A DNA stretch of 45,829 bases from Euryarchaeota archaeon UBA229 (lineage in GTDB: Archaea; Thermoplasmatota; Poseidoniia; Poseidoniales; Poseidoniaceae). Where the stretch lies: positions 50,551 through 96,379 of the forward strand of contig DAUW01000076.1 in assembly GCA_002505355.1 (NCBI GenBank). The letters run 5' to 3'. The notes beneath the pieces are model-generated. The model was not told the origin of the DNA and did not search any database. It was given only the letters and a program-made list of their open reading frames with translations. A program made the translations under genes and the position numbers. Shown here piece by piece: positions 12,880-39,151 of this stretch (positions within the stretch are counted from its first letter, which is position 1; every line of letters starts with the position of its first letter).

Positions 12880-12966
12880 GCGGCAGTCGCATAGCCTGGC
12901 CATTGCGCCGGATTGCTAATCCGGTGGTGTCTCACCTCGGGAGTTCGAATCTCCCCTGCCGCGCCA
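12880..12966 (+). tRNA. tRNA-Ser (anticodon GCU), class II with long variable arm, 3' CCA encoded
   Basis: Acceptor GCGGCAG/CTGCCGC. Anticodon stem CCGGA/TCCGG with loop TTGCTAA (GCT at 12915-12917). Variable arm GGTG-TCT-CACC. T arm GGGAG-TTCGAAT-CTCCC. Discriminator G, then CCA (12964-12966). No intron. Confidence 0.9.
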
Positions 12967-15933
12967 TCATTCAAAGAAGTCGTCAAACTCATCAGCCATC
13001 GATTCAGCAGCTAACCGACGATTTCTCGCAGCAACAACTCTTCGCAGCCTCTTGAGGCGTTTTGCGATGAATGCCAGCATGATTATGCCGATGCACAAGG
13101 TTGAGAGTGTAACTATCCCAGCTGTCATGAATTCTTGCTGCTCAAGACTGTCACTGAAGTTTCCTAGCCATTCGCTCCCTAATGGTGGCTCAGGTTCAGG
13201 TTCAGGTTCGGGGATGACGTGCTGATTGTATGACCACCAGTCATATTCAATGTACACTTTTTCTACATTTGCTGATGGATAGATTACCACCGTGCGCTCA
13301 TTGCCATACTCATCTGTTGGCGTTAGAATGTAGTAAAATACCTTCATTGGCCTGATTCGATTATCTTCCATCCCAGTAACTGTATACTGGAAACTATCTC
13401 CTGCAGTGTAGGTCATGTCGCTTAAGATCGGCTGAATCAGGGATAAATCCATACCGTTGGGATTTTGTTCGACTCGATAAAGATCCCAGGTTTCGTTTGC
13501 TTCGCCTTGGGGCCAGGTCCAAGAGATTGTGACCTGATAACACATATTCCAATCTTTTAGGATGGCATAACAATCCGTATCATTGGTAAACAGTGAATTG
13601 CTTTGCATGTCTACAATAGATGTTGAGGGAGGGGTAGAATCACCACATATATATGCAGACGTACCGTTTTCCATAGAGACATTTGCCAAGTGGTTGAATG
13701 TATTACCCGTTCTATCTACTGGTATTATGGCGTATGATGAACAGTAACCGTCGGGAACTGTTAGCATATCCTGCCAGCTGGTCTCGTTCAAGGGAACAAA
13801 CTGTCTAAAGGAATCAGCAACTAAGTCATTCCACATCAATTGATTATAGTTTTCCTGAGGTGATTGGAATATGGTGCCACCAAAGTCGGGTACTACTCTT
13901 TGGTGAATGTTCCATCCTAGAATGTAATCACTCTCAACGTCGCCATAAGGGTCCCAATTAAGTTCAAAGTTTCCAGCCGAGATTAAATCCACCGTAAAAT
14001 TTCGAGCCTCTATGTCGGGCTCGCCAATTTCTCCGATTACTAGAATGGTAGTCGGTTCATACAAACGAGCAAACATAACTGTTTGATTTTTGTATCCATA
14101 GTGTTCACTGTTGAAATACTCCCAACTTTGGTCATCAAAGGAGTTCAATTTTCTAAACTCTACCGATGTGTAGGGGACTCCCTCAGGCAATGCGTGATAC
14201 AGGTTTAATTCGACATCAAGCCAATTCTGCCCGTCAAATATAGAATCATTATTTGTTGTATCAATAAGATCAAACTGATATAGCATCAACGGTATATTGC
14301 CTCCACCTATGTTGTAGTCCTGTCTGACCATTGGTAGCATTGATTCATGAGTAATCTCTACTGTGTTTGATGGTGAGGTTGCTGATGCCGTGTAGAAAGG
14401 GGCGTTGTTAATGCTAATCTCAGAATAAACCAAGATACTGAAATAAATAATTTCACTATTGCCAATAATATCAGTGGTAATTAGTTTGAAAGTGTGGCTA
14501 CCTAGGCCATAATCCGCCGTGTTAATATCAATCTGATGACCATAGTCTACGTTGATTATACCAGAGTACCACCATGAATAGTTTACCGGGCTCGCCGAGA
14601 AAGGGTTTACATTGGCCGTAACAGTAATTGTCTCTTCATCAGTGTACCATTCCTTCTCGTTCGATATGGTAATTGAGGATGCTAATTGTGCGACAATCAC
14701 GTTAGCATCTTCCTCGATTGTGTTGTCAAGGGTGTAAGAATCATAGTTGTTATCGATCAAGTTGGGCAGCACGGCTTGCATGGCGATGTCATTACCATGA
14801 ACAGGCATGTCGAACACGCAGGTACGCTGTTGGTTAGGTGCTAGCTCCGTAATCTCACAGGTTTGTAGTATTGGTTGTCCATTACTTTTTGAGATTGTCA
14901 GTTCTAAGTCAAAATCAACAGCAGTGGCATTCCCATTATTGCTGATGATTACTGAGACCATATCAAAACCGAATAGGTAACTCTGTTCAGACGGGTTGTG
15001 GCTTGGGAACATATTATTTATTGATAAGTCAAGTTCAGTGTCAATATATATGGTTATTTCATTCAGGTTATTGTCATCTTTTAAGTCATGATACGGTGCG
15101 CCAGTGGAATCAAATAGACCGTAAACTAATGTGTATACTCCATCTTGATTGTACTCAAACGTTGGTAACCCCATCTGGAACGATTTATAGAATGAAAATT
15201 TTGGGAAATTTTCGGTGAATTCGTAATTTTCGCTCAACATAGCAGATTTATTTTCGTTCCATAGTTGCCACCCAATAGAAGCGTTCAGTTGACAAGTTGC
15301 ACACAAGTTTGCAAAAGCTGAAAAAGTCATGTTATACTGTGTGTCTCTGGATAGTAAATCATTGCCAGCGTAGTTGGCTAGGTTAGGTAGACCTGACACA
15401 ATATCGTCATTGGTCTCAATCTTGAAATCGGTATACTCTAGGGTAGAATTTATTTTGAAATTTAAGATATCGTCAGTTGGATTCATATCCATCTCGTCAA
15501 ACTGATAAATTACGGTAATAGTCTCATTTATCCCATTTGGATAAAATCCGTTAGTTGAAGTGAAATTGTTGCTTGCGCCGGGATTAATTGGTGGAATGAG
15601 AAATGTACCATCATCGATTCTTTGCGAGATGCATACATTGGTAACTTGTTCTCCAAGACAAACATACCAAGACATTGTTCTTGGGTCTGATGCAGTAGAG
15701 TCTGAGTTGGTCAGTTCAACAGTAAAGTAGGTTGGCTCATAAGCAGGAATGTAGTCATATTCAGTTGGTGTCGAGCCTATTATTGACAGATTGCCTTGAG
15801 TAGATGCTTCTGCATTATCAACTACACTGATGCTTGCGAGTGTAGAAAAGAGCATCAGAAAAACAACGAAAACGCAGGAAAACCTTTGATTCCCCAATTG
15901 CTTTGACGCCACACTCATATGGTTCGCTAACAA
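12967..15933 (-). CDS. Large cell-surface protein (signal peptide, sequon-rich ectodomain, PE-repeat stalk, C-terminal TM anchor); possible S-layer or surface glycoprotein
   Basis: N-terminal hydrophobic signal (FSCVFVVFLMLFSTLASISVV). More than 15 N-x-S/T sequons. PEPEPEPEPP linker. TM helix AGIVTLSTLCIGIIMLAFIA followed by KRLKRLRR and an acidic cytoplasmic tail. I recognise no enzymatic motif. Confidence 0.6.
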   Translation of the reverse strand: MLANHMSVASKQLGNQRFSCVFVVFLMLFSTLASISVVDNAEASTQGNLSIIGSTPTEYDYIPAYEPTYFTVELTNSDSTASDPRTMSWYVCLGEQVTNVCISQRIDDGTFLIPPINPGASNNFTSTNGFYPNGINETITVIYQFDEMDMNPTDDILNFKINSTLEYTDFKIETNDDIVSGLPNLANYAGNDLLSRDTQYNMTFSAFANLCATCQLNASIGWQLWNENKSAMLSENYEFTENFPKFSFYKSFQMGLPTFEYNQDGVYTLVYGLFDSTGAPYHDLKDDNNLNEITIYIDTELDLSINNMFPSHNPSEQSYLFGFDMVSVIISNNGNATAVDFDLELTISKSNGQPILQTCEITELAPNQQRTCVFDMPVHGNDIAMQAVLPNLIDNNYDSYTLDNTIEEDANVIVAQLASSITISNEKEWYTDEETITVTANVNPFSASPVNYSWWYSGIINVDYGHQIDINTADYGLGSHTFKLITTDIIGNSEIIYFSILVYSEISINNAPFYTASATSPSNTVEITHESMLPMVRQDYNIGGGNIPLMLYQFDLIDTTNNDSIFDGQNWLDVELNLYHALPEGVPYTSVEFRKLNSFDDQSWEYFNSEHYGYKNQTVMFARLYEPTTILVIGEIGEPDIEARNFTVDLISAGNFELNWDPYGDVESDYILGWNIHQRVVPDFGGTIFQSPQENYNQLMWNDLVADSFRQFVPLNETSWQDMLTVPDGYCSSYAIIPVDRTGNTFNHLANVSMENGTSAYICGDSTPPSTSIVDMQSNSLFTNDTDCYAILKDWNMCYQVTISWTWPQGEANETWDLYRVEQNPNGMDLSLIQPILSDMTYTAGDSFQYTVTGMEDNRIRPMKVFYYILTPTDEYGNERTVVIYPSANVEKVYIEYDWWSYNQHVIPEPEPEPEPPLGSEWLGNFSDSLEQQEFMTAGIVTLSTLCIGIIMLAFIAKRLKRLRRVVAARNRRLAAESMADEFDDFFE
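13186..13213 (-). repeat. Short tandem hexanucleotide repeat (CAGGTT x3 on the + strand) encoding the PEPEPEPE stalk
   Basis: Read directly: ggctCAGGTTCAGGTTCAGGTTcgggg. The minus-strand translation is IPEPEPEPEPPLG. Confidence 0.8.
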
Positions 15934-16019: not shown

Positions 16020-17126
16020 TTGGCTGGTACTGGGATAATCATGGACCCAGTTCATGTTTCTTTGAACAGAGATGAGAACGCCATGACCGCGGTAATCGAG
16101 TTTCTCTCCGCATTTACCCTTTTTCTCATGATCCTAACGGCCTTCTTATCACTAGCCCAGTTAGAGATGGGTTCGAACGATACCTCCGTTGATAGGCTTG
16201 ACCGAGCTGCGGCACAAGGACTGGACCGTATGACCTCTGACGGCGGTTGGTATGTGCCCGCATTTTCTGATGGCTCCCTTGATTATGCGAATTCAACTTC
16301 TGAATGGCATCTTCAACCGATTACAGAGGTAAATCAGGGAATTGTATTGGCTGGATTAATGGGCGCTAATAATCTAGATTTCGACCGTATTTCTGCGCTT
16401 GGTAACATCACTGAGGATAATTTGGCAAGAGGCCTTGGATTGGGCGAAAAATACAGCCTAAATCTTGAAATTAAAATAACAGAATCAAATATCCCCGAAC
16501 GCCATGGTTTGGTGTTGTTTACCGGTGGTACTGAGCGCGGTACAGCGCAGGCCTCCTCCTCATCGTTCAAAGAAATTCAAGTTGGTGCGGAAAAGTTCCT
16601 GATAATACTCGAAGTTCACAACGGCGGTAGGAAAGCAGATAATTTGCACATCACAGAGATTAGCCCACGCTCAGTATCCGGTGCACCAGAATGGATTGAG
16701 TTGTACAATCCAAACAACTTTGCCATCGACCTCAACGGTTGGAGTTTGTCGCATATTTCTCCGAACCACAACACTAACATTTTGTTGAGAGGAGGGGTAA
16801 TTTCGGGAAATTCTGTTAGTATAATTACTGGAGACCCAAGCAGTCAAGATACTGGTGATGCTGACCACATCATTGACTTAGGTAGCGAAGGTTTCCTTGG
16901 TGTTGGTGAGCTCAATTTACTGGATGATGGGGGTGGTGTAGTCATTCTTTCGTATACCCAATTAAGTGAATATCAACCATTTGAGGTAATGCGTGTGGCA
17001 TGGGGAGGGGATACCGGTTATTTCCTAACGCCCAGCCAGTCATTGGTAAATCTAGGCAACAATTTTCCTCCTACAGAGGATGATTGGGAAGTATCTAGTA
17101 ACCCAAGTCCCGGGATAATCAACTAG
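16020..17126 (+). CDS. Membrane-anchored protein with C-terminal lamin-tail domain (LTD)
   Basis: N-terminal hydrophobic helix AVIEFLSAFTLFLMILTAFLSLA. C-terminal LHITEISPRSVSGAPEWIELYNPNNFAIDLNGWSLSH, which matches the LTD signature (EWIELYNP...DLSGW). TTG start at 16020, alternative ATG at 16041. Confidence 0.65.
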   Translation: MAGTGIIMDPVHVSLNRDENAMTAVIEFLSAFTLFLMILTAFLSLAQLEMGSNDTSVDRLDRAAAQGLDRMTSDGGWYVPAFSDGSLDYANSTSEWHLQPITEVNQGIVLAGLMGANNLDFDRISALGNITEDNLARGLGLGEKYSLNLEIKITESNIPERHGLVLFTGGTERGTAQASSSSFKEIQVGAEKFLIILEVHNGGRKADNLHITEISPRSVSGAPEWIELYNPNNFAIDLNGWSLSHISPNHNTNILLRGGVISGNSVSIITGDPSSQDTGDADHIIDLGSEGFLGVGELNLLDDGGGVVILSYTQLSEYQPFEVMRVAWGGDTGYFLTPSQSLVNLGNNFPPTEDDWEVSSNPSPGIIN

Positions 17127-17982: not shown

Positions 17983-18568
17983 AGTGTTTGAATTAGACCA
18001 GGGAATTGCCGATCAATTAACCGAAGTATCCCTCAACAGCTCAGTGCAAGTAAGATGCGGCAACTCAAATTCGTTCATGGTAACGGCAAGCACCCTAATT
18101 CCGTTACTGCAGATGTTCGAGATGAAAGGTGTTTACATTTCCGCTAGCCGTGGCGCTGCAGAAGTAATTCAGGCATTTGAGTCGGTCGGCATTGACGTTT
18201 CTCAAATCCAGTTTATTGACTTAGTCTCTTCAGGTATTCTTGGTGGCACCAATATACCATACAACAATGTTCATTTTGTTGATAGTCCGATAATGCTAGA
18301 ATCGATACTACTTCGGACATTGTACATATTGCAAACTAATCAATCAGAAAGAAATTTCGTGTTTGTTGATAGCGTTAACGCACTGGCGATTTACAATGAC
18401 GACAGAATGCTTGCGGAGTACCTCCACACTTTCATCAATACATTCAGGCAACAAGATGTGCTATCGGTAATTCTCAATGTGCCTGACCAGACGCCGCCGT
18501 TAGTTCTGTCAAACCTAGATCTCTACTGTACTGATTTAGTCGACAGAGGTCAAGTTGTCATCCATTAA
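17954..18568 (+). CDS. Degenerate KaiC/RecA-fold-like protein lacking a P-loop
   Basis: Collinear with the KaiC-like layout, but the Walker A position reads VQVRCGNSNSFMV. It retains a Walker-B-like NFVFVDSVNAL. It overlaps the 3' end of the preceding gene (GTG 17954 or ATG 17960 against the stop at 17982). Confidence 0.5.
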   Translation: MIMSIVGGLEVFELDQGIADQLTEVSLNSSVQVRCGNSNSFMVTASTLIPLLQMFEMKGVYISASRGAAEVIQAFESVGIDVSQIQFIDLVSSGILGGTNIPYNNVHFVDSPIMLESILLRTLYILQTNQSERNFVFVDSVNALAIYNDDRMLAEYLHTFINTFRQQDVLSVILNVPDQTPPLVLSNLDLYCTDLVDRGQVVIH

Positions 18569-18581
18569 AGGAGGTAGTCAG

Positions 18582-19385
18582 ATGGCGAAGGAGATTCAGT
18601 TTGAAGCAGAGGATGAGGAGTTCTTTGGTAAAGTTGGCTCATTCGGTGTACCCAAATTCGATAATGAAATGCGCGGTGGTGTGCCAAGAGGATTTACTAT
18701 GATTGCCTTTACCGATACCGGTTCAGGTAGCGAACTGTTCGCCAAGCAGTTTGTTTCACCAGCAGAAGAGGCTGAAAACACCATCTACATCTCAACCAAC
18801 GAGGGTCAAGCAGAGATTGTGCGAATTTTCCAGAAATACGATTGGCCGCTGGACATCAATGTTAGAACAATTGGTGAGGAGTATAACTCGAACGTATTGG
18901 AAAAAGAGTTGCTTGCTAGCAGATATAGGCTAGAAGGCTTCCGTCTTGAGGATATCCAAAGGCTTGCACAAACGCGATTCGTCGATGAAAATAATCAAGA
19001 TTACCTCACTGAAGTAACCAATGAAGTTATGGCTTTAGGGCCGTATTTTAGGGCCGTTGTTGACAGTTTGGATTTCTTCCTGCAAAGAGACGACCCAGCG
19101 CGGGTTGTGGCTATGGTTAGGATGCTGCAAGCTCACGCTCAAATGTACCGTGGTTTACTGTTTCTCACGGTATCCACAGACGGCCTCTCACCTAGCATCA
19201 AGCAAGAATTAGCGTCCATTGCTGACATGGTGTTGTCGTTTCAAGTGCGAACTATCGGAACAGATTTCGAAACCTCGATGATGGTATCAAAATTTAGAAA
19301 TGCGCCAGAAAATTTGAAGATATTAGTGTTTAGAGTGACCCCCGAAGAAGGTATTACCCCGGAAACCGTCGAACGTATTGCTTGA
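18582..19385 (+). CDS. KaiC-like protein with inactivated Walker A
   Basis: FGVPKFDNEMRGGVPRGFTMIAFTDTGSGSELFAKQFV has the KaiC-like N-terminal layout, but GxGKT is replaced by GSGSE. Walker-B-like AVVDSLDFF. AGGAGGT Shine-Dalgarno lies just upstream of ATG 18582. Confidence 0.65.
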   Translation: MAKEIQFEAEDEEFFGKVGSFGVPKFDNEMRGGVPRGFTMIAFTDTGSGSELFAKQFVSPAEEAENTIYISTNEGQAEIVRIFQKYDWPLDINVRTIGEEYNSNVLEKELLASRYRLEGFRLEDIQRLAQTRFVDENNQDYLTEVTNEVMALGPYFRAVVDSLDFFLQRDDPARVVAMVRMLQAHAQMYRGLLFLTVSTDGLSPSIKQELASIADMVLSFQVRTIGTDFETSMMVSKFRNAPENLKILVFRVTPEEGITPETVERIA

Positions 19386-19429: not shown

Positions 19430-20176
19430 ATGGCAGGTCGAAGCGCAACTGGTGGTTATGACCCGTCAGGTATCGACATCGATGAGTGGGAATTATTAGA
19501 ATCTCAGCTGGAAGAATCGATACCAAATTACGATCGAGTTAATCGTTTGATGACATTTGGTCAAGATGCGGTATGGCGAAAAAATGTTCGGAGTCATGCG
19601 CAACCTGGAATGAAAGTATTGGAAGTAGGATGCGGCCCCGGCTCATTTGCCGAAGATATCGAAAGTGTTGACTTGACTTGCTTAGACCCATCAGAAGAGA
19701 TGTTGAAAGTCGCTAAAGTTAGGGTAAATGATGCTCGTCAATTGCGTGGTGAGCCGCCGGCAGATTATGTCCTTGCTATCGCCGAATCAATACCATTGCC
19801 AGACAACACTTTTGACCGCGTATTCTGCTTATTCTCCTTCCGTGATTTCCAAGATAAGAAGAAAGGATTAGAAGAAATACTTAGAGTTCTCAAACCGGGT
19901 GGCCAGTTAGTGATTTGTGATGCTGGCAAGGCTAACTGGGTTCACGGCTTGGCCGGAAGGATATGGATGTCTACAGTCGTACAATGGATTGCAAGATACG
20001 TCACTAAGAAAAAAGACCACCCCTGGAAAGGGCTTGCCAAAACATATTCCCATTATGGCACCAACGGTTATTATCGAAGGTTGATGAGAGAAGTTGGTTT
20101 TGAAAATGTTCAGGGAAGACTGCTGATGCCATTCGGAATGGCTAGCAGATTCAGGGGACACAAACCTGATAATTGA
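19430..20176 (+). CDS. ubiE: Class I SAM-dependent methyltransferase, UbiE/MenG (quinone C-methyltransferase) family
   Basis: YDRVNRLMTFGQDAVWRKN (UbiE-family N-terminal block), VLEVGCGPGSF (SAM motif I), LKPGGQLVICD. Confidence 0.65.
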   Translation: MAGRSATGGYDPSGIDIDEWELLESQLEESIPNYDRVNRLMTFGQDAVWRKNVRSHAQPGMKVLEVGCGPGSFAEDIESVDLTCLDPSEEMLKVAKVRVNDARQLRGEPPADYVLAIAESIPLPDNTFDRVFCLFSFRDFQDKKKGLEEILRVLKPGGQLVICDAGKANWVHGLAGRIWMSTVVQWIARYVTKKKDHPWKGLAKTYSHYGTNGYYRRLMREVGFENVQGRLLMPFGMASRFRGHKPDN

Positions 20177-20260: not shown

Positions 20261-20587
20261 GTGATGACTTTGACAATGGCTGATGTCCTGCGAAAAATCA
20301 AACAAACCGAAAGAGAGGCTGCACGACAGTTGTCTGCAGCAAAAGACGAAGCGTCAAAGATTGTCTCAGACGCCCGTAAAAAATCAGCAGAGATAATTTC
20401 ACAAGCATCAGACGATTCTGTGTCCAACACTCAGTCAATCCTCGATTCGGCCCGTGAAGAGGCTGCCAAATCGGCAGAAAAAGTTCACAAGGAAGGGGCT
20501 AAATCAGTTACTTCGATTAATACAACTGCTAACAAGAATGTCTCTAAAGCAGTTGATCATATCTTGAAGACTATGTCATCATTGTAG
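20261..20587 (+). CDS. atpH: A-type ATP synthase subunit H
   Basis: 108-aa charged helical protein (ADVLRKIKQTEREAARQLSAAKDEASKIVSDARKK) in first position of the atpHIKECFABD order. GTG at 20261; ATGs at 20264 and 20276 are alternatives. Confidence 0.75.
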   Translation: MMTLTMADVLRKIKQTEREAARQLSAAKDEASKIVSDARKKSAEIISQASDDSVSNTQSILDSAREEAAKSAEKVHKEGAKSVTSINTTANKNVSKAVDHILKTMSSL

Positions 20588-22951
20588 GTGTTTTCGATGT
20601 TTGAAACTGCTGAAATGTCCCGTCTAACTGTGGCATCTCCAGTTGACAAAATGGAAGCAGTATTGAGAATCTGTGCAGATTTAGGCTGTGTGCATATCGA
20701 GGAGTACGGCAATTTTGAAGACGGCATTGGAGTCGGTAAATCTATTTCATCTGATGAATCTGCTCTCATTAGTCAATTACTGACTAAAGGAAGGGCACTG
20801 CAAGCAGAACTGAATGCAGTTAATACTGCTGGGCCTAAATCGACGGCAGAAGTTAAACAACTAGTCGACACCATGGGAGATAAAATCGATCAAGCATTAG
20901 TATTACTGGATGAATCAAGAGATGCAAATTCCGAAATTACCTCCCTCGCCGAGCGAATAAAAGCGCTGCAAAGAGTCGCTCCTCTTGGCATTCCATTAGA
21001 ATTGATGGCGGGTTTCGACGGTGTCGAACTTTTCATTGCGGAAACCTCGAAGGCGTCCAAAGCGCGTGCAGAGTTTTCTGACCTCCTCGCAGATATTGAA
21101 TTACAAGCTGCAAACGGCATTATTGCCATTGCTTGTCGACCATCGGATAGTGCTGCTGTACAAATTGGACTAAGCGCGCTCGGGGCTAAACCAATCCAGA
21201 TTCCATCAGGTGAGGGTTCTGCCGACGAAATGATTGCCGACGCACAAGCCAAGATTGAGTCACTCGAGTCGAAAATAAGCAGTGCTGAGAAGTCCTTGAA
21301 ACAGTGGTCAAACGCCAACGGGCGAGATTTGGTTATTATTCTTGAACACCTAGAGCGTGAGGAATCCATATACACGGCTCCAACCTTGCTAGCTGTCAGC
21401 AACCAGGCATTTGTCCTCGACGGTTGGATTCCAACTGAGGAACAAGACAAAGTTGAGTCAGCATTATCCAGCGCAGCCTCACACATTTCTATAGAACAAT
21501 ACGTAGACAATCACCACGGTCACGGCGACGAACACCATGATGATCATACGGACAAACAAGAAGTTCCAAAAGAATTAGAGATGTTATCCGATTATTTATC
21601 CAGTAAAAATCAATCAGTATTCGAGTTCTTTAGAAGTATGGATTTAGACGATTCCGGGGCGCTTGAGTTTGCTGAGATTGAGTCAGCAATGCAAGCAGCA
21701 GATATACCAGACATGCCACCCCTAAATATGGCTAGATTCCTTGCGGCCATAGACCTCAATCGTGACGGGAAAATTAACCTCCCTGAGCTAGATTTAGCGA
21801 TTGGGGCCATAAGAAATGGTACCTATCACACAAAAGAGTACCATGATGATGCTCAACCGCCGATTAAATTCGATAACGGAGAATTCTCAGAGCCATTCGA
21901 GCTGTTGGTAGATTTAGTTGGCAGGCCGAAATATGGAACATTTGACCCGACGCTACTTATGACCTTTACCTTCCCTATTTTCTATGGTATGATACTCGGT
22001 GATTGGGGCTACGGTCTTGTATTGTGCGCTATTGCAGCATACTTCGGCACGAAACCATTTGCTGCTGATCCGCTTGCCCAAAATGGCTTGACAATTCTAC
22101 GCTGGATGGGGATATGGTGTATTATTTGGGGCTTAATTTTCGCTGAAGGTTTCGGTTTCGTTTGGGATGATACAGGACAAATGGGCAATTCCTCTCCGTT
22201 TGATTTCATTTATGACTGGACTTACGCTAACGTCCACGTTCCAGGAACCCTCGCTGACCTGCTAGCAATGGGTGGCTTGCATGTACCATTCCATCGTGCC
22301 AGTCCAGGCGGTGGCCTACAAGAGTACGTTGTTCTGTCTGTCTATGTTGGTGTTCTCCACATATTTGTCGGTCTATTTATTGGACTATACACAGTATGGA
22401 ATGCTCACGGTGCAGCCGCAGCATTCTTCGAAAAAGGTTCCTGGATACTGATTATGACTGGCGGCACCATGCAGGCAAGAAACATGGTCATGGGATTCAA
22501 TGAGTTATTCGAATTCCAGATCTGGACAGTGTTCATAGCTGTGGGTCTAGTATGCTTAGTCATCGGATTAGCCGTCTACGAGAAGTTTGGTTGGGTTGGC
22601 GGTTTGGTCATGGGCCCGATAGAAATCTTTGGATTGCTGGCTAATACTCTTTCCTATCTTAGAATAATGGGAGTTGGCGTTGCGGGCGTAAAAATCGCAG
22701 AAATTTCCATCAGCATGGGCTGGGAAAAAATCGGACCTGCAATGGACGCAGGAGACATCATTGGCCTAGTCCTCGGTATCGTTCTATTTGTCTTAGTGCA
22801 ATTGTTTGCGATTGCTCTTGGAATTTTATCACCTTCAATTCACGCTATCCGTCTACACTTTGTAGAATGGATGGGTAAGTTTTACGACGGCAGTGGCAAA
22901 GCATTCGCGCCACTTGGCGGTAGAACCCTTCATGTGGAGGGTAAATCATAG
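20588..22951 (+). CDS. atpI: A-type ATP synthase subunit I (a-subunit homolog) carrying an inserted His-rich/EF-hand module
   Basis: N-terminal soluble coiled domain. Conserved PPIKFDNGEFSEPFELLVDLVGRPKYGTFDPT junction. C-terminal multi-TM domain with LSYLRIMGVGVAG (essential Arg region) and LHFVEW. About 100 aa longer than I would expect for archaeal AtpI. Confidence 0.9.
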   Translation: MFSMFETAEMSRLTVASPVDKMEAVLRICADLGCVHIEEYGNFEDGIGVGKSISSDESALISQLLTKGRALQAELNAVNTAGPKSTAEVKQLVDTMGDKIDQALVLLDESRDANSEITSLAERIKALQRVAPLGIPLELMAGFDGVELFIAETSKASKARAEFSDLLADIELQAANGIIAIACRPSDSAAVQIGLSALGAKPIQIPSGEGSADEMIADAQAKIESLESKISSAEKSLKQWSNANGRDLVIILEHLEREESIYTAPTLLAVSNQAFVLDGWIPTEEQDKVESALSSAASHISIEQYVDNHHGHGDEHHDDHTDKQEVPKELEMLSDYLSSKNQSVFEFFRSMDLDDSGALEFAEIESAMQAADIPDMPPLNMARFLAAIDLNRDGKINLPELDLAIGAIRNGTYHTKEYHDDAQPPIKFDNGEFSEPFELLVDLVGRPKYGTFDPTLLMTFTFPIFYGMILGDWGYGLVLCAIAAYFGTKPFAADPLAQNGLTILRWMGIWCIIWGLIFAEGFGFVWDDTGQMGNSSPFDFIYDWTYANVHVPGTLADLLAMGGLHVPFHRASPGGGLQEYVVLSVYVGVLHIFVGLFIGLYTVWNAHGAAAAFFEKGSWILIMTGGTMQARNMVMGFNELFEFQIWTVFIAVGLVCLVIGLAVYEKFGWVGGLVMGPIEIFGLLANTLSYLRIMGVGVAGVKIAEISISMGWEKIGPAMDAGDIIGLVLGIVLFVLVQLFAIALGILSPSIHAIRLHFVEWMGKFYDGSGKAFAPLGGRTLHVEGKS
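21494..21856 (+). other. Insertion within atpI: His/Asp-rich stretch (21512..21547) plus two canonical EF-hand loops (21641..21676 and 21752..21787)
   Basis: HHGHGDEHHDDH. Loop 1 is DLDDSGALEFAE, flanked by helices VFEFFRSM and IESAMQAA. Loop 2 is DLNRDGKINLPE, flanked by MARFLAAI and LDLAIGAI. Both satisfy D-x-[DNS]-x-[DNS]-G-x-[ILV]-x-x-x-E. Confidence 0.8.
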
Positions 22952-22981
22952 TCCATTGGACAAATAAAGGAGGTAGCAAAA

Positions 22982-23296
22982 ATGAACAAGAATACCCTGA
23001 AAATGAGCCTGAGAACCCTGATCGTCTTGCTGGCATTGACCCTTGTAGCACAAGGTGTTGCAGCAGAAGGAGAAGAAACGGGAGAAGATACGAACGTAGG
23101 AAACATCGGTAACCTCGGTGTTGGTATTGCGCTAGGATTAGCCGGACTAGGTGCTGGTTACTCACAAGCCGCAATAGGTAGCGCTGCAGTCGGCATGCTT
23201 GCCGAAGACGGCAGCAAGTTCGGTTACGCACTAATCTTCACAGCTCTGCCAGAGTCTATCGTTATCTTGGGCGCTCTGCCATTGTTCCTACAGTGA
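22982..23296 (+). CDS. atpK: A-type ATP synthase subunit K (proteolipid c) with N-terminal signal-like extension
   Basis: GVGIALGLAGLGAGYSQAAIGSAAVG (helix 1) and ALIFTALPESIVILGALPLF (helix 2, carboxylate E). AAAGGAGGT Shine-Dalgarno upstream of the ATG. Confidence 0.9.
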   Translation: MNKNTLKMSLRTLIVLLALTLVAQGVAAEGEETGEDTNVGNIGNLGVGIALGLAGLGAGYSQAAIGSAAVGMLAEDGSKFGYALIFTALPESIVILGALPLFLQ

Positions 23297-23348
23297 ACAT
23301 TTACCTTTGACGGTCTAGAAGACTGTTGGAGTATATGGAGGAATAAAA

Positions 23349-23912
23349 ATGACGCTCGAAACATTGGCTAAAGATATCGCTGCATCTGCAGAAGCAGATG
23401 TCAAAGCGCTGATCGACGAAGCCAAGTCTGAAGCCAAGGAAATATTGGAAGAAGCCAAAAACAAAGCATCCGGTATAACTGATGAAGCTAACTCAAGGGC
23501 TGAGCGTGAAGCCGCTCAAATATCCCGTGAAGTAGTTGCTAGTGCTAGACAAGCGAATCAAAAATCGATATTGATTGCGAAACGGGAAGCCATGGATAAT
23601 ACCCATGCTGCTGTTAAAGAGCAACTTGCTGACCCTGGCTTCAAGGGTCGTGCCAGTATGTTAAAATCATTGATGGCAAAAGCCGACAAAGTTGCATCAG
23701 CAGATTTCGTTATCAGGCCAGTAGAAGTGGATAAGAAAGCACTTAGTGATTTGAAAGGTAAGCGAAAACTAGGCACAACTGTCGATGGTCTTGGAGGATT
23801 TATCCTAGAGGCCGCTGATGGGTCTGTATCTTATGATATGAGATTTGACACTCTGCTAGATACAGCGTGGGGACAGTCCCTATCGGAAGTTAACAGAATA
23901 TTGTTTGGTTGA
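23349..23912 (+). CDS. atpE: A-type ATP synthase subunit E
   Basis: 187 aa. N-terminal long charged helix (AEADVKALIDEAKSEAKEILEEAKNKA) and a globular C-terminus. Position in the operon. Confidence 0.85.
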   Translation: MTLETLAKDIAASAEADVKALIDEAKSEAKEILEEAKNKASGITDEANSRAEREAAQISREVVASARQANQKSILIAKREAMDNTHAAVKEQLADPGFKGRASMLKSLMAKADKVASADFVIRPVEVDKKALSDLKGKRKLGTTVDGLGGFILEAADGSVSYDMRFDTLLDTAWGQSLSEVNRILFG

Positions 23913-23922
23913 GGTGAAATGA

Positions 23923-24957
23923 TTGGCTGGTAATACTGCTTACGTTGCTTCGAGAGCCAAATCTCGAAGGAAGAAACTTGCAGACTTAGCAAGGATGCGG
24001 CAGCTTATCAATCAATCAACCGATCAATTAACAGCATCTGTAAGTAACATGGGTTATGCTGACGAAATTAACTTGTACGCCGGGAAATTGACTGGCGCAG
24101 ATTTGGTTGAGGCAGCATTAACACACAACCTTGAAGCAGAATTATCAGAGATACTCAAAATGTGCAATGGTAAAATTAGAGACGTAGTCGATATCTACAC
24201 CTCACGGTTTGAATATCAAAATGCCAAAGTCGTGCTCCGATCTGTTGTGAATGAAGTTGCTTTAGATAAAGTTTCAAATTCGATACTACCAGATTTGAAC
24301 GATATCAATACGCCATGGTTGAAAATTATCGAAACTGCAGATGACTTGCGATCCGCAGTCTTGCAGATGCGGCGTAAATCCTTCGGAGCAGACCTCAAGG
24401 CGCTGCCCGAGGATGCGAGATTATCTGAATACGAGGATGCCCTAGACAGGCATTACTTCAAGTCGGCTACCAAATCACTCAACGCAAAAAATCCAGCGAC
24501 GAAGTACTTGAAAGACTACTTAGCAATGGAAATTGACCACCGAAACATAATGAATATACTTGAATCGGATTCGATTGGTATATCATCCGATGAAATGGCT
24601 AAACTGTTAATTGCGGGTGGTAAAATACTACCATCTAGAGCATTTTCAACGATTGCTGCTGGTGGTAGGTCAGCATTAATGGATGTGCTTAGAACGTCGT
24701 CTAAATTTGACATGGGGCACTTTGAGGGGCTGTTAGAAGAGGTCACAAAATCTAGAAGCTTAGATTCCATAGTAACATGGTTCAAGGAAAGGGAACATAA
24801 GTTCATGAAAAAAATGAGTTATCTCCATCCCATTTCCGCACTGCCAATAGTTTACTATGTTGCAATGAAGGTACAAGAAGTTGCAGACCTGAGAATAATT
24901 GTCAGAGGAAGATTTGCTGGCTTGCCGGCAGAAGTGCTAGAGGCGCACATACTATGA
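23923..24957 (+). CDS. atpC: A-type ATP synthase subunit C (V-type d homolog)
   Basis: 344 aa. N-terminal YVASRAKSRRKKL, typical of AtpC. Position in the operon. TTG start. Confidence 0.85.
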   Translation: MAGNTAYVASRAKSRRKKLADLARMRQLINQSTDQLTASVSNMGYADEINLYAGKLTGADLVEAALTHNLEAELSEILKMCNGKIRDVVDIYTSRFEYQNAKVVLRSVVNEVALDKVSNSILPDLNDINTPWLKIIETADDLRSAVLQMRRKSFGADLKALPEDARLSEYEDALDRHYFKSATKSLNAKNPATKYLKDYLAMEIDHRNIMNILESDSIGISSDEMAKLLIAGGKILPSRAFSTIAAGGRSALMDVLRTSSKFDMGHFEGLLEEVTKSRSLDSIVTWFKEREHKFMKKMSYLHPISALPIVYYVAMKVQEVADLRIIVRGRFAGLPAEVLEAHIL

Positions 24958-24966
24958 GGTGTAAAT

Positions 24967-25266
24967 ATGGAATTAGCAGTAGTAGGCTCACATGAATTCA
25001 CTCTAGGGTTCCAGCTGGCTGGTATTTCAAGCACCTTCAATCCTACAAGTGATGAGGAAATGGCCTCACAACTAAAATCACTACTTAATTCAAGAGAGGT
25101 TGGAATTATTGTCATCGACTCTGCAATAATGTCAACCTTGCCAGAGAGATTGCGAGACCAACTCTCGGCATCAGTTACTCCCACGGTACTTGGAATCGGT
25201 ACCGAGGAGGACACTACTTTGCGGGACACAATCCGCAAAGCAATAGGAGTCGACTTATGGAAATGA
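24967..25266 (+). CDS. atpF: A-type ATP synthase subunit F
   Basis: 99 aa. [20 protein letters not shown] is typical of AtpF. Position in the operon. Confidence 0.85.
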
Positions 25267-25288
25267 ATTCCAAAAAGGAGGAAAAAAT

Positions 25289-27028
25289 ATGAGCAATGAA
25301 GGAGTAATATATCGAATATCCGGTCCTGTAGTAACCGCAACTGGAATGAACGCAGCTATGTATGACGTTGTCAGAGTAGGACATGAAGGACTGATGGGTG
25401 AAGTTATCGAACTTCACGGTGACAAGGCAATTATACAAGTTTACGAAGACACCTCGGGCATAAGACCGGGCGAACCCGTTTTGAACACGGAAGAAACCCT
25501 ATCTGTGTCTCTAGGTCCAGGTTTGTTGACCCAGATTTATGACGGTATCCAAAGACCGTTAGCAACACTCGAGGAAGTAATGGGCGTATTTATCACTAGA
25601 GGGGTTGATGCGGATGCTTTCGACCTTGAGAAGAAGTGGACATTCGAACCAATCGTCGCCAAGGGCGATGATCTTGCCAGCGGTCAAGTTATTGGTCACG
25701 TGCAGGAAACCGAAACTATTGTTCACAAGATTATGGTTCCTCCGGGAAAAAGTGGCAAAGTTAAATCTATCAAGTCTGGTGATTTCAACGTCACACAAAC
25801 CGTTTGTACCCTAGACGACGGAACTGAACTGCAAATGATGCAGAAATGGCCAGTTAGGTCACCTAGACCGTTCCGCCAGAAATATGCTCCAGATACGCCG
25901 TTAGTGACTGGAATGCGAATCCTTGATTTCCTCTTCCCGCTCGCCAAGGGTGGTGCAGCAGGAATTCCTGGACCATTCGGTTCAGGTAAAACAGTAACTC
26001 AGCAGTCACTTGCCAAGTATTCTGACGCGCAATTAGTGGTATACATAGGATGTGGCGAGCGTGGCAATGAGATGACAGAGGTACTAGACGAATTCCCGCA
26101 CCTAATCGATCCAAACACCGGTAAGCCGCTGATGAACCGTACTGTAATGATTGCCAATACCTCCAACATGCCGGTCGCAGCTCGTGAGGCGTCGGTTTAT
26201 ACTGGAATCACCATTGCCGAGTACTTCAGAGATATGGGGTACGATGTTGCCCTGATGGCTGATTCAACCTCGAGATGGGCCGAGGCAATGCGTGAAATTT
26301 CATCAAGATTAGAAGAGATGCCTGGAGAAGAAGGCTATCCTGCTTATCTATCATCGAGAATTGCTGAGTTCTATGAGCGTGCAGGTCGTGTTGAGACCTT
26401 GAGTGGTGAAGACGGGTCTGTAACTGTGATTGGTGCGGTGTCACCCCCGGGTGGAGATATTTCCGAGCCGGTTTCTCAGGGAACTCTTCGAATTGTCAAG
26501 GTATTTTGGGGACTCGACGCCGGTCTTGCAAGGCAGAGACATTTCCCAGCAATCAACTGGCTTAATTCCTATTCATTGTATCCGCAAAGCTTAGATCAGT
26601 GGTTTAGAGACAATATTGCGCAAGACTTCCCTGAAATTAGAACCCAAGTGAGCGGGCTTTTACAAATAGAAGCAGAACTGCAGGAGATTGTTCAATTGGT
26701 AGGATCAGATGCACTCCCTGTTGACCAACAATTAACTTTAGAAGTTGCGAGAATGATTAGAGAATTTTTCCTCCAGCAGAACGGCTTCCACGAAGTCGAT
26801 GCTTACTGTGACATTAATCTACAGTACAAGATGGCAAAAGCAATACTATCTTTCCAAGACTCTGCTAAGGCTGCAATGGCTTCAGGTGCGCAACTAAATG
26901 ATGTTGTCAACGTTCAATCTAGAACAGATTTGATGAGAGGTAGATTTGAGAAAGGCTACATTGACGAAATCGAGGAGATGGTGAAAAACATGACCGCAGA
27001 AATTGCGGGTACCGTGGAGGGTAACTAG
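25289..27028 (+). CDS. atpA: A-type ATP synthase catalytic subunit A
   Basis: Walker [17 protein letters not shown] and the non-homologous-region insert typical of A/V-type A subunits. 579 aa. Confidence 0.97.
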
Positions 27029-27039
27029 GAGGAATAATC

Positions 27040-28407
27040 ATGAGTGGAAAAGAATACAGAACAATTACCGATGTAAAAGGCCCACTGGTCTTTTTGAATA
27101 AAACAGAACCCGTTGCTTTTGGCGAAATTGTAACTTTGAGGCTGGCTGATGGCTCGATTAAAAACGGCCAGGTACTGGACACCTCGGATGAATTAGTTAT
27201 CGTCCAAGTATTCGAAGGAACTGCTAACATCAATCGGGAGTCTGGTGTGACATTCATGGGGGACGTGTTCAAGCTTCCAGTGAGTACCGAACTGGTTGGT
27301 AGAATCCTTGACGGTGCAGGTCGACCAAGAGACGGCGGTCCTGCGATTGTTGCAGAAGAGAATGCGGATATTATTGGTGCGGCAATTAACCCTTACAGCA
27401 GGCAAAGCCCACACGATTTCATCCAGACCGGTATTTCAGCCATCGATTGCTGTACAACCCTAGTGCGTGGCCAGAAATTGCCAATTTTCTCAGCATCCGG
27501 TTTGCCGCACAATGACATTGCACTGCAAATAGCCCGTCAAGCCAAATTAAAAGACTCAGATGAAGAGTTTATTGTGGTATTTTGTGCTATGGGAATTACC
27601 GCAGAGGAATATAATTTCTTTAGGAGTGACTTAGAACGAACTGGTGCGCTTGAGAATGCGGTTTTGTTCGTTAATCTAGCAGATGACCCAGCAGTTGAGA
27701 GAATTATTACCCCGCGTTTAGCACTAACGGCTGCAGAATACCTAGCATTTGAGAAAGATTACCACGTGCTGGTTATTTACACAGATATGACAAATTATTG
27801 TGATGCATTAAGACAAATCGGTGCGGCTCGTGAAGAAGTTCCCGGGCGCCGTGGATACCCAGGTTACATGTACACAGACTTGGCTATGCTATACGAGCGT
27901 GCAGGTATTGTAAAAGGCAAAAAGGGTTCAATCACTCAATTCCCGATTCTAACAATGCCGGGTGACGATATAACCCACCCAATTCCAGACTTGTCTGGTT
28001 ATATTACCGAAGGCCAGATTGTTATTTCTAGAGAATTACATCAACAAGGAATATATCCTCCAATCAACGTATTGCCATCCCTGTCTAGACTGATGGGATC
28101 GTGTATTGGCGAAAAAACCACGAGAGAAGATCACAAGTCTGTCTCAGACCAAATGTATGCAGCATATGCTCAGGGAAGAGAATTACGAGGGTTAGTTGCG
28201 ATTGTTGGAGAGGATGCACTTAATGAGCGAGACAAGCAACTGCTCGACTTTTCTGGGGTCTTTGAAGATAAATTCCTAAGACAAACTAGAGATGAGGACA
28301 GATCGATCGAAGAAACTCTAGATCTATGTTGGAATCTGATGTCTTCGATTGACACCAAATATCTCGTTAGACTCGACCAAAAGTGGATTGAGAAGTACGG
28401 GAAGTAA
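27040..28407 (+). CDS. atpB: A-type ATP synthase subunit B
   Basis: Conserved blocks [31 protein letters not shown] and [30 protein letters not shown]. Confidence 0.97.
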
Positions 28408-28430
28408 GTAATTAACTAGGAGCGATATTC

Positions 28431-29048
28431 ATGGCATTGGACATTAAACCAACCCGCAGTGAATTGATTAAACTTAAAGCGCGGATAAAGCAGACAAAAA
28501 ATGGGTATAAGCTACTCAAAATGAAGAGAGACGGACTGTTCCATGAATTCAGACAACTACTATCCAAGATGATAGAAGCCAAACGTGAGCTTACTGATGC
28601 ATACCGGCTTGCTAAGCAAAGAATCGATCTAGCAAATGCGATTGATGGGGGTTTAGCTGTTAGAGCCGCAGCAATTGCCAATAGTGCCCACCCAGAAGTT
28701 GAAGTAGAAAAAAGGAATATTATGGGAGTCGTTGTTCCAAGCGTTAGCGGAACCAACCTCAAATCTACTTTTGAGGAACGCGGAGTTGGATACATTGGAT
28801 CATCACCATATATCGATGAAGCAAGTGACTCATTTAGTGAATTGATTGAGAAAATAGTGACCGCTTCAGAGATGGAAGCAACATTAAAACGTCTGTTAGA
28901 GGAAATTGAAGCAACTAAGCGCAGAGTCAATGCTCTAGAATTCAAAGTGATACCTGAATTAGAAGAAGCCAAAGTGTTTATTCAATTGAGATTAGAAGAG
29001 ATGGAGCGTGAAGAAACATTTAGATTGAAGAGATTCAAGAATAAATGA
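28431..29048 (+). CDS. atpD: A-type ATP synthase subunit D (central stalk)
   Basis: IKPTRSELIKLKARIKQTKNGYKLLKMKRDGL and the C-terminal ATKRRVNALE are typical of AtpD/V-type D. Confidence 0.9.
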   Translation: MALDIKPTRSELIKLKARIKQTKNGYKLLKMKRDGLFHEFRQLLSKMIEAKRELTDAYRLAKQRIDLANAIDGGLAVRAAAIANSAHPEVEVEKRNIMGVVVPSVSGTNLKSTFEERGVGYIGSSPYIDEASDSFSELIEKIVTASEMEATLKRLLEEIEATKRRVNALEFKVIPELEEAKVFIQLRLEEMEREETFRLKRFKNK

Positions 29049-39141: not shown

Positions 39142-39151
39142 AGGTGGTAGT

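Follow-up and report, generated by a model that had tools for sequence, protein, structure and literature searches.

The ATP synthase operon and its stator subunit

The 45.8-kb stretch of DNA analysed here (the window) contains a complete A-type ATP synthase operon, atpH-I-K-E-C-F-A-B-D (20261..29048, plus strand), in which subunits G/H, c, E, C/AC39, F, A, B and D, as well as the V_ATPase_I family, each score above the Pfam gathering threshold. The second gene, atpI (20597..22951, plus strand), encodes the stator subunit I/a: its product matches the V_ATPase_I profile (PF01496) with an E-value of 1.9e-31 and 109.3 bits (cutoff 30.7), and in the PDB its sequence matches the I/a subunits known from E. 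hirae, T. thermophilus, yeast and mammals. The open reading frame 20588-22951 (plus strand, 787 aa) is thus subunit I of the A-type ATP synthase. Residue numbers are given here from its GTG codon at 20588, although the true start is probably the ATG at 20597, giving 784 aa, because a database protein that is 100% identical (P0001) has this length. At least 70 related loci have the same genes next to atpI.

The overall layout is that of an ordinary subunit I, as known from M. ruminantium (3rrk), T. thermophilus (5gar/6qum) and E. hirae (8wci), with which it shares domain order, the PP...DPT junction, the SYLR helix and the operon context. The soluble N-terminal domain, which forms the stator arm, covers residues 1-305 (20588..21502, plus strand), as delimited by the AF2 model and by the alignment of residues 9-310 to the N-terminal domain of M. 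ruminantium subunit I (3rrk 13-323), and it closes with the beta-strand HISIEQY (AF2 strand 299-304). Further downstream, residues 416-776 align to residues 309-645 of T. thermophilus subunit I. The first membrane helix is preceded by a PPIKFxN...FELLVDLVGRPKYGTFDPT junction (residues 424-455; 21857..21952, plus strand), whose residues P424, P425, G445, R446, Y449, D453 and P454 are invariant throughout our alignment of Poseidoniales-like subunit I sequences (alignment A2), and which aligns from residue 309 of the T. thermophilus subunit and from residue 335 of the E. hirae one. Residues S689, Y690 and R692 of the arginine helix (SYxR) are invariant in both alignments A1 and A2, and this segment aligns with SYTRLM in E. 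hirae and SYLRLW in plant a-subunits; we take the Arg at position 692, facing the c-ring, to be the essential one. Where ordinary subunits I have a short linker without EF-hands, acidic in most lineages and His-rich in the Poseidoniales-like ones, the protein studied here carries an additional domain. As the initial annotation had proposed, this insertion separates the soluble N-terminal domain from the PPxxF..DPT junction, and the alignments to 3rrk and to T. thermophilus subunit I flank it on either side.

A paired EF-hand domain in the stator linker

The inserted segment keeps the reading frame of subunit I and forms a paired EF-hand domain of the canonical type. EF-hand 1 spans residues 340-371 (21605..21700, plus strand) and EF-hand 2 residues 378-409 (21719..21814, plus strand), both supported by PROSITE pattern PS00018, by conservation and by AF2 helices. 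Their predicted Ca2+ loops, DLDDSGALEFAE (residues 352-363; 21641-21676, plus strand) and DLNRDGKINLPE (residues 389-400; 21752-21787, plus strand), are the only two PS00018 matches in a six-frame translation of the whole window, the expectation being 0.0026 matches per shuffled AtpI. This pattern describes a loop of 12 residues with oxygen ligands at positions 1, 3, 5, 9 and 12, a glycine at position 6 and a hydrophobic residue at position 8; the Glu at position 12 of both sites is presumably a bidentate Ca2+ ligand. The two loops start 37 residues apart, a distance expected in a paired EF-hand lobe, so that both the presence of the pair and the spacing that had been read from the DNA hold. 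An amphipathic helix, KELEMLSDYLSS (residues 328-339; 21569..21604, plus strand), recognised from conservation and AF2 and called helix 0 hereafter, lies on the N-terminal side of the pair.

Profile searches with the segment alone give the same assignment, with four Pfam families above their gathering scores: EF-hand_7 (32.7 bits, cutoff 30), EF-hand_1 (31.5 bits, cutoff 25.4), EF-hand_5 (32.5 bits, cutoff 25.9) and EF-hand_6 (28.1 bits, cutoff 25). The profile-based detection proposed as a check therefore succeeded, and it extends to all 22 of the 22 diverse homologous segments searched, which match EF-hand_1, _5, _6 and _7 at E <= 0.001. A type I dockerin, which we considered as another reading, was rejected (Dockerin_1, 13.9 bits for a cutoff of 22.9, E=0.065).

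Structure prediction agrees with this assignment for the module itself. In an AF2 model of the core (residues 328-411), which is one static and ligand-free prediction, pLDDT is 70-85 and the chain folds into two helix-loop-helix units, with helices 344-349 and 361-371 flanking the first loop, helices 381-388 and 398-409 flanking the second, and a beta-bridge joining the two loops at positions 7-8 of each; helix 0 (328-339) is helical in both AF2 models. The best 50 Foldseek matches of this core in the PDB are all EF-hand proteins, the first being ACF7 EF1-EF2 (TM 0.67, rmsd 2.4 A, 76 columns), with E-values that are all weak (>=0.015), in part owing to disorder in 40% of the segment modelled. 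The full-length model, built on an 18-sequence alignment, reaches pLDDT 70-94 over residues 10-304, whereas the insert and the larger part of the membrane domain stay below 50. The structure prediction that had been suggested thus gives the core an EF-hand fold, but with the insert at pLDDT <50 in its full-length context no orientation of the module within the subunit can be claimed.

Comparison with relatives led us to redraw the boundaries of the insertion. The insert proper comprises residues 321-418 (21548..21841, plus strand), defined as a gap in alignment A2 with respect to the closest relatives lacking it, i.e. P0121 (52% identity, 684 aa), P0122 and P0123; in the search against representatives, the second aligned stretch pairs residues 419-787 with residues 315-684 of P0121. 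Measured against these relatives the insertion is about 98 aa long, shorter than the ~120 aa first estimated. The His-rich tract that had been counted as part of it does not belong to it either: insert-less proteins P0121-P0133 also have an HGH..H.D tract just upstream of the PP junction, which indicates that the His-rich linker is older and that the EF-hand module landed inside it. The upstream half of this linker, HHGHGDEHHDDH (residues 309-320; 21512..21547, plus strand), is recognised from conservation and has an AF2 pLDDT below 50; across 53 EF-bearing sequences H309 never varies and H310 and H312 hardly do, and alignment A2 shows an invariant H317 together with near-invariant H310, G311 and H312. 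The downstream His/acidic half, NGTYHTKEYHDDAQ (residues 410-423; 21815..21856, plus strand, pLDDT likewise below 50), is variable yet rich in H, D and E across all EF-bearing sequences, and its counterpart by alignment is the linker tail of HHEPE type found in relatives that lack the insert. Mean identity is 46% and 37% for the two halves, respectively. The module is held between two tethers predicted to be disordered, of ~23 and 14 residues.

An 11-nt direct repeat, ACCATGATGAT, found at 21534 and 21840, flanks the insert. We do not retain it as a target-site duplication or mobile-element signature and treat it as chance: it consists of low-complexity His/Asp codons, it is matched at the protein level in 10 of 52 species only, and the insert has ordinary GC and GC3. 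Indeed, GC3 is 0.398 in the insert and 0.393 in the N-terminal domain, near-equal values that indicate a composition that is not foreign.

Distribution, origin and selection

We searched GTDB species genomes and recovered 52 complete insert-bearing genes, each from a different species genome, all of which (52/52) have both PS00018 loops. Carriers of the insert include AG-333-I22, which is a single-cell genome, and CM001443, an MG-II chromosome (a chromosome-scale MAG), and near-identical insert-bearing proteins have been assembled independently on up to 44 contigs. Such identical architecture in 52 of 52 species genes, a single-cell genome and CM001443 rules out a misassembly or a gene fusion, in line with what had been argued from the continuous reading frame.

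Mapping the insert on its relatives, as had been suggested, places residues 321-418 in one subclade of the Poseidoniaceae. EF-bearing sequences are monophyletic in 100 of 100 bootstraps and nested among insert-less lineages, and this Poseidoniaceae (MGIIa) subclade owes its module to a single gain in its ancestor. No EF-hand was found in the other 149 of the best 150 subunit I representatives out of 6266, the set to which our statements on insert-less proteins apply; subunit I of Poseidonia also lacks the insert. The host organism of the window is uncultured. Sister lineages including Poseidonia share the same seawater and do without the module, which is thus not needed for function there.

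The module is under strong purifying selection that extends to each predicted Ca2+-ligand position. Among the 53 EF-bearing sequences, loop 1 has invariant D352, D354, S356, G357 and E363, with either D or E at position 9; loop 2 keeps D389, D393, G394, N397 and E400 throughout, with either N or D at position 3. The predicted side-chain ligands are all invariant or conservatively substituted, whereas identity in the N-terminal domain averages only 62%. Helix 0 is conserved too, with E329, L330, M332, L333 and L337 invariant, Y336 kept in 52 of 53 sequences and a mean pairwise identity of 70%. The dN/dS ratio of the insert (0.039) lies between those of the membrane domain (0.033) and the N-terminal domain (0.062). 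Overall, the segment is very probably a genuine EF-hand pair that is kept by selection and binds metal.

We looked for a co-evolving partner among the other subunits and rejected it, given that EF-bearing and insert-less loci differ neither in gene order nor in how long the AtpH, K, E, C and F proteins are. Similarly, no difference was found between these two sets of loci in the ion-site motif of the c-subunit.

Possible roles at the pivot of the stator arm

The conservation of an EF-hand pair at the hinge between arm and membrane domain suggests that Ca2+ may act directly on the rotary enzyme through this pair. The module, made of one amphipathic helix and two helix-loop-helix units with predicted Ca2+ sites, sits in the flexible linker by which the cytoplasmic stator arm, at its proximal lobe, is joined to the ion-channel domain embedded in the membrane. 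The pair would bind cytoplasmic Ca2+ and, as EF-hand pairs do, change conformation; the loaded module might then dock on, or let go of, an adjacent surface, for which its own helix 0, the proximal lobe or the foot of the E-H stalk, rotor subunit C (d) and the membrane are candidates. Either event would bias where the arm stands at its pivot, or how stiff it is there, and thereby modulate coupling or activity. Seawater contains ~10 mM Ca2+, and in one physiological version the loss of membrane energisation would let cytoplasmic Ca2+ rise, upon which the module would help to block wasteful ATP hydrolysis.

Judging from sequence, selection and position, the likeliest function is a Ca2+-dependent control of the stator arm. 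The complete explanation, i.e. a selected EF-hand pair in the stator linker that binds Ca2+ and modulates the enzyme, appears to us evenly poised, and that the module is specifically a Ca2+-responsive regulator has a probability at or a little under that level. A stronger version would make this enzyme a second-messenger-gated rotary ATP synthase, in which a Ca2+ sensor built into the stator serves as a clutch or brake on the A1AO machine by changing how the arm is placed relative to rotor subunit C or to the proximal stalk; we put it forward only tentatively, as a rather unlikely possibility.

EF-hand pairs can also be purely structural or act as buffers. A pair constitutively loaded with Ca2+ or Mg2+ could serve the arm-membrane hinge as a rigid brace, or offer a further docking surface there, stabilising the stator, for example at the foot of the proximal E-H stalk, without conveying any signal. 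Conserved ligands, a conserved hydrophobic core and low dN/dS fit such a role equally well. In parvalbumin, which is not a sensor, an extra N-terminal helical element caps the EF pair, and the invariant amphipathic helix 0 could cap the pair studied here in a parvalbumin-like manner, an arrangement that would speak against a sensor. Several of the Foldseek matches are in fact parvalbumins, aligned over ~95 columns but with rmsd of 4-6 A and E-values of 0.03-0.2; beyond the EF pair, our model has a single extra helix (328-339), as opposed to the AB helix-loop-helix cap at the N-terminus of parvalbumins. However, a brace suspended on two low-complexity tethers predicted to be disordered would be an odd design, and the otherwise similar enzyme of sister lineages has no such module. 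Moreover, canonical EF loops with Glu at position 12 usually bind Ca2+ with micromolar affinity. Since bacteria hold their cytoplasmic Ca2+ at nanomolar levels (PMC5615198), constitutive occupancy would not be expected. We regard a structural role as rather unlikely.

EF-hand pairs often bind target helices or dimerise. The module may accordingly be an adaptor that recruits another protein, in a Ca2+-dependent manner or not, or that oligomerises; conceivable partners are an inhibitor, a protein of the cytoskeleton or membrane and a second ATP synthase, and the outcome would concern localisation or supramolecular organisation and not catalysis. [quoted passage not shown]

Still less probable is a sensor of transition metals or pH, in which the His/Asp-rich linker would be the functional element, binding Zn2+, Ni2+ or Cu2+ or titrating near neutral pH, and the EF pair would merely add acidic ligands. 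The linker is indeed older and more widespread than the EF-hands and has been kept on both sides of the insert, but its details are poorly conserved (46% and 37% mean identity), and the exact oxygen-ligand Ca2+ geometry of both loops, with no His or Cys at ligand positions, would be left unexplained. Finally, a non-functional passenger or an assembly artefact, to which the flanking repeat ACCATGATGAT might have pointed, is effectively refuted by the in-frame insert, which is found in each of the 52 complete genes of the clade as well as in a single-cell genome and a chromosome-scale MAG, by a dN/dS of 0.039 with invariant ligand residues, and by the restriction of the low-complexity His/Asp repeat to 10 of 52 species at the protein level.

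The regulatory reading, namely Ca2+ modulating the enzyme through the stator linker, has partial precedents. In T. thermophilus, the arm pivots on its proximal subdomain and contacts between arm and subunit d mechanically block rotation; in Vo auto-inhibition, described in T. thermophilus and yeast, repositioning of the soluble arm on this subdomain can lock the rotor (PMC7367684). The MGIIa module stands where the proximal subdomain ends, close to this pivot; unlike what would happen there, Vo auto-inhibition is driven by the dissociation and binding of V1 and not by a ligand, and involves no Ca2+ site. The eukaryotic a-subunit's N-terminal domain is a regulatory hub, and in Drosophila the V-ATPase a1 subunit V100 binds Ca2+-calmodulin there, i.e. 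a four-helix EF-hand sensor on the N-terminal arm of the homologous stator subunit (PMC10313074, PMC3987144). In that case, however, calmodulin acts in trans as a protein of its own, and what has been documented as output is control of SNAREs and vesicle fusion instead of rotary catalysis, whereas MGIIa have a single EF-hand pair in cis within a prokaryotic ATP synthase subunit. The ATP-Mg/Pi carrier of mitochondria (APC/SCaMC) likewise has a fused calmodulin-like EF-hand module that makes its activity Ca2+-dependent (PMC6283063), and Foldseek matches the AF2 core to its regulatory domain (4zcu, 4zcv) among others; it has four EF-hands in an N-terminal domain of a carrier, as opposed to two in an internal loop of a rotary stator, and this likeness is one that EF-hands share in general and does not testify to a common origin. 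Among prokaryotes, EfhP of Pseudomonas aeruginosa also has two canonical EF-hand loops and is tied to Ca2+ responses (PMC9132961), but EfhP-type proteins are small and stand-alone, whereas in MGIIa the pair forms a domain inside one of the core enzymes of bioenergetics.

To our knowledge, little is established on the regulation of archaeal A-type ATP synthases, and Ca2+ signalling in archaea is largely uncharted. That EF-hands in this subunit had not been described stands as far as publications go, in that our full-text literature searches revealed no account of EF-hands in A/V-ATPase subunit I, the nearest statement being that subgroups of Poseidoniales have lineage-specific families with calcium-binding domains (PMC9258230); it does not stand for databases, where the automated Pfam tags of public protein collections already mark these EF-hands.

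MGIIa (Poseidoniales) have been described as abundant members of marine microbial communities (PMC9723583). A canonical EF-hand module under strong purifying selection at the mechanical pivot of their stator provides a concrete and tractable hypothesis, for which the insert-less sister enzymes (Poseidonia and the L055-L060 group) offer a natural control. Were the module only structural, it would still mark the linker as a site of subunit I that tolerates domain insertion. Were it regulatory, it would be a cis-encoded counterpart of the interaction between calmodulin and the a-subunit in animals, and a new form of control of rotary ATPases. If the clutch or brake version were true, it would represent the first known ligand-sensing domain inside an A/V-type stator, and direct evidence, in an archaeon, of core bioenergetics under the control of Ca2+ signalling.

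A paired EF-hand segment in subunit I of the ATP synthase

A complete A-type ATP synthase operon lies on the forward strand of the window, with every subunit above its Pfam gathering score: atpH (20261-20587), atpI (20588-22951), atpK (22982-23296), atpE (23349-23912), atpC (23923-24957), atpF (24967-25266), atpA (25289-27028), atpB (27040-28407), and atpD (28431-29048). As listed, atpI starts at GTG 20588 and codes for 787 aa, from which residues are numbered here. Because the 100% identical database protein has 784 aa and all homologues begin with MFETAEM, its true start is likely ATG 20597. AtpI is a genuine subunit I/a family protein; by sequence, its residues 9-310 align to 13-323 of 3rrk (crystal structure of the N-terminal domain from M. 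ruminantium subunit I), and 416-776 to T. thermophilus subunit I 309-645.

The initial annotation had described an insertion of ~120 aa in AtpI with a His-rich tract and two EF-hands, and the three motifs are indeed found where it placed them (HHGHGDEHHDDH at 309-320, DLDDSGALEFAE at 352-363, and DLNRDGKINLPE at 389-400). Both loops match the PROSITE EF-hand pattern PS00018 and are its only matches in a six-frame translation of all 45.8 kb, while composition-shuffled AtpI yields a mean of 0.0026 matches. Their starts are separated by 37 residues, as is usual for EF-hands paired in one lobe. Profile-based detection gave the same answer: by itself, the 121-aa segment scores above the Pfam gathering cutoffs of EF-hand_1, _5, _6, and _7, and the same four families are matched at E <= 0.001 by 22 of 22 diverse homologous segments. 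A dockerin reading was rejected, the Dockerin Pfam match being below threshold.

Residues 300-440 were modelled with AlphaFold2, and the model is confident over a core spanning 328-411 (pLDDT 70-85). This core has helices at 328-339, 344-349, 361-371, 381-388, and 398-409 and short beta-bridges at positions 7-8 of each loop; the His-rich flanks are predicted to be disordered. The predicted layout is one extra helix, followed by two successive E-loop-F units with the classical inter-loop sheet. The best 50 Foldseek matches in the PDB are all EF-hand proteins, among them ACF7 EF1-EF2, parvalbumins, calcyphosine, CIB1, calmodulin, centrin, ALG-2, and the regulatory domain of the ATP-Mg/Pi carrier; the best match has a TM of 0.67 and an rmsd of 2.4 Å over 76 columns. 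E-values across the matches are weak (0.015 and above), for a query that is 40% disordered. By sequence pattern, profile, and predicted fold, the two EF-hands are confirmed, and the insert is a bona fide canonical pair with putative Ca2+ binding.

When 1.84 billion representative proteins were searched exhaustively with HMMER, a single full-length 50%-identity cluster had the EF-hands (P0019); among the other 149 of the best 150 of 6266 representatives, no PS00018 loop was found except in one fragment of the same clade. The representatives that come next in similarity, P0121 (52% identity, 684 aa), P0122 (47%, 679 aa), and P0123 (39%, 685 aa), all lack ~100 residues exactly at the insert site, and residues 315-684 of P0121 align to 419-787 of the query; cluster names confirm P0121 as Poseidoniaceae and P0123 as Poseidoniales. 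In alignment with such relatives, the extra segment falls at about residues 321-418 (nt 21548-21841), that is ~98 aa rather than ~120, between the last strand of the stator arm’s proximal lobe and the membrane-entering PP...DPT segment.

Nor does the His-rich tract belong to the insertion, as had been proposed: insert-less relatives still have a His/Asp-rich linker at this site (HHGHDGHDDHHEPEPP, HGHGHDDDHH, HHHGHHQGHEEELPP), and the tract therefore predates the EF-hands. In more distant subunit I proteins the linker is mostly acidic and devoid of His. The EF-hand module was thus inserted into an older His-rich tract, of which an H/D-rich tether remains on either side (309-327 and 410-423). 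The linker between soluble arm and membrane domain (HGH..H.D...PP; window 21512-21547 and 21815-21856) is common to Poseidoniales-like lineages, with EF-hands or not (P0121-P0133), and might itself respond to metal or pH. The insert is bracketed by a perfect 11-nt direct repeat, ACCATGATGAT (21534-21544 and 21840-21850, 306 nt apart); as the matching peptide repeat (HHDD) occurs in only 10 of 52 species, it is probably due to chance in low-complexity His/Asp codons.

Distribution, origin and selection

Scanning one genome for each GTDB species gave 80 loci. The window itself belongs to Poseidoniaceae (MGIIa), and the locus nearest to it is from a MAG labelled MGIIa-L1. Fifty-two of the loci code for a complete subunit I (774-802 aa) in which both PS00018 loops are present, including the single-cell genome AG-333-I22 and the MG-II chromosome CM001443, which upholds the view that the architecture is neither a fusion nor an assembly artefact. 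Another 26 code for proteins of 660-692 aa with no PS00018 loops, labelled Poseidonia sp., Ca. Poseidonia alphae, or other Poseidoniaceae. One typical EF-hand-bearing Poseidoniaceae atpI (L042, CALKHD010000188.1, 800 aa) comes from a MAG labelled ‘uncultured Flavobacteriales bacterium’, and its contig is probably a binning contaminant.

When a neighbour-joining tree was built from 661 columns outside the insert, all EF-bearing sequences fell into a single clade (100/100 bootstraps), itself nested within insert-less lineages, and this clade is also monophyletic with its insert-less sister group L055-L060 (100/100). On this topology, a single gain of the module is by far the more parsimonious account, compared with repeated loss. 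The insert is unremarkable in its GC and GC3. Subunit I tolerates insertions at several sites: the distant P0133 (842 aa) has a different hydrophobic insertion of >100 aa in the C-terminal membrane domain (columns ~810-925 of our alignment A2), and representatives of 720-766 aa (P0124, P0127, P0131, P0154, P0177, and others) carry lineage-specific extra segments.

Mean pairwise identity among 53 EF-bearing sequences is 62% in the N-terminal domain and 63% in the insert. Invariant positions are D352, D354, S356, G357, and E363 in loop 1, D389, D393, G394, N397, and E400 in loop 2, and E329, L330, M332, L333, and L337 in the helix preceding the pair (helix 0), where Y336 is present in 52/53; position 9 of loop 1 is either D or E, and position 3 of loop 2 either N or D. 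By the Nei-Gojobori method, applied to 46 pairs with dS 0.1-1.2, the insert core has a dN/dS of 0.039, the N-terminal domain 0.062, and the membrane domain 0.033, so that the module is as constrained as the proton-path domain. A neutral passenger or artefact is excluded by these data on spread and selection (52 complete genes, dN/dS, invariant ligands).

Genomic neighbourhood

The atpK product (c subunit, 104 aa) is extended at its N-terminus by a conserved segment resembling a signal peptide (MNKNTLKxSLRTLIVLLALTLVAQGVAA), after which comes an acidic stretch, and it contains an SQ...PES motif that resembles, in sequence, the Na+-binding signature Q...E-S/T of Na+-coupled rotor rings; neither feature differs between EF-bearing and insert-less Poseidoniaceae. 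Immediately upstream of the operon lie a KaiC-family ATPase-like protein (18555-19385, +) and a UbiE/COQ5-type methyltransferase (19430-20176, +). Four long ORFs have no Pfam match at E<=1e-5: 12967-15933 (-, 988 aa), 29115-31697 (+, 860 aa, directly downstream of atpD), 39125-40321 (+, 398 aa), and 42445-44223 (+, 592 aa). A lamin-tail domain protein (PF00932, E=6e-10) is encoded at 16020-17126 (+). The sole Rfam match in the window is a tRNA at 12880-12963 (+); its 84 nt exceed the 71-position model, perhaps because of a long variable arm or an intron. An SMC chromosome-segregation ATPase (35239-39141, +), HMG-CoA reductase (40940-42289, -), and a succinate dehydrogenase/fumarate reductase-type flavoprotein (32633-34252, -) are ordinary housekeeping context for an archaeal genome.

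A possible Ca2+ input to the stator arm

The module is a canonical, selected EF-hand pair with a conserved amphipathic helix, carried on two flexible tethers. Glu at EF-loop position 12 is the classical bidentate Ca2+ ligand, and its presence in both loops suggests binding of cytoplasmic Ca2+; external Ca2+ around these marine cells is ~10 mM. On this reading, Ca2+ binding would change the conformation of the module, which would then dock on, or be released from, a neighbouring surface (candidates being helix 0, the proximal lobe or E-H foot, subunit C, and the membrane). This would alter the position or stiffness of the stator arm, and with it coupling or activity. Physiologically, de-energisation might raise Ca2+ and thereby put a brake on ATP hydrolysis. 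One peripheral stalk is held at each end of the arm (PMC10313074). In T. thermophilus the proximal subdomain is the pivot of the arm, and contacts between arm and subunit d block both rotation and proton conductance mechanically (PMC7367684). The N-terminal domain of Drosophila a1, which is homologous to the stator arm, is a binding target of Ca2+-calmodulin (PMC10313074).

Rather less probable, though still a serious alternative, is a structural brace with a constitutively loaded EF-hand pair, which the parvalbumin-like Foldseek matches and a possible capping helix would favour. That the pair acts as a recruitment or oligomerisation adaptor seems improbable, and a role of the His-rich linker itself as a sensor of transition metals or pH more improbable still.

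Full-text searches of the literature turned up no account of EF-hands in A/V-ATPase subunit I, the closest published remark being on lineage-specific families with calcium-binding domains in Poseidoniales subgroups (PMC9258230). The claim that the architecture had not been described stands as regards the papers searched, but not as regards databases, where it is already visible through automatic EF-hand Pfam tags on these proteins in public collections. What appears to be new is the architecture, in which known domains are combined at a mechanically meaningful site of the enzyme.
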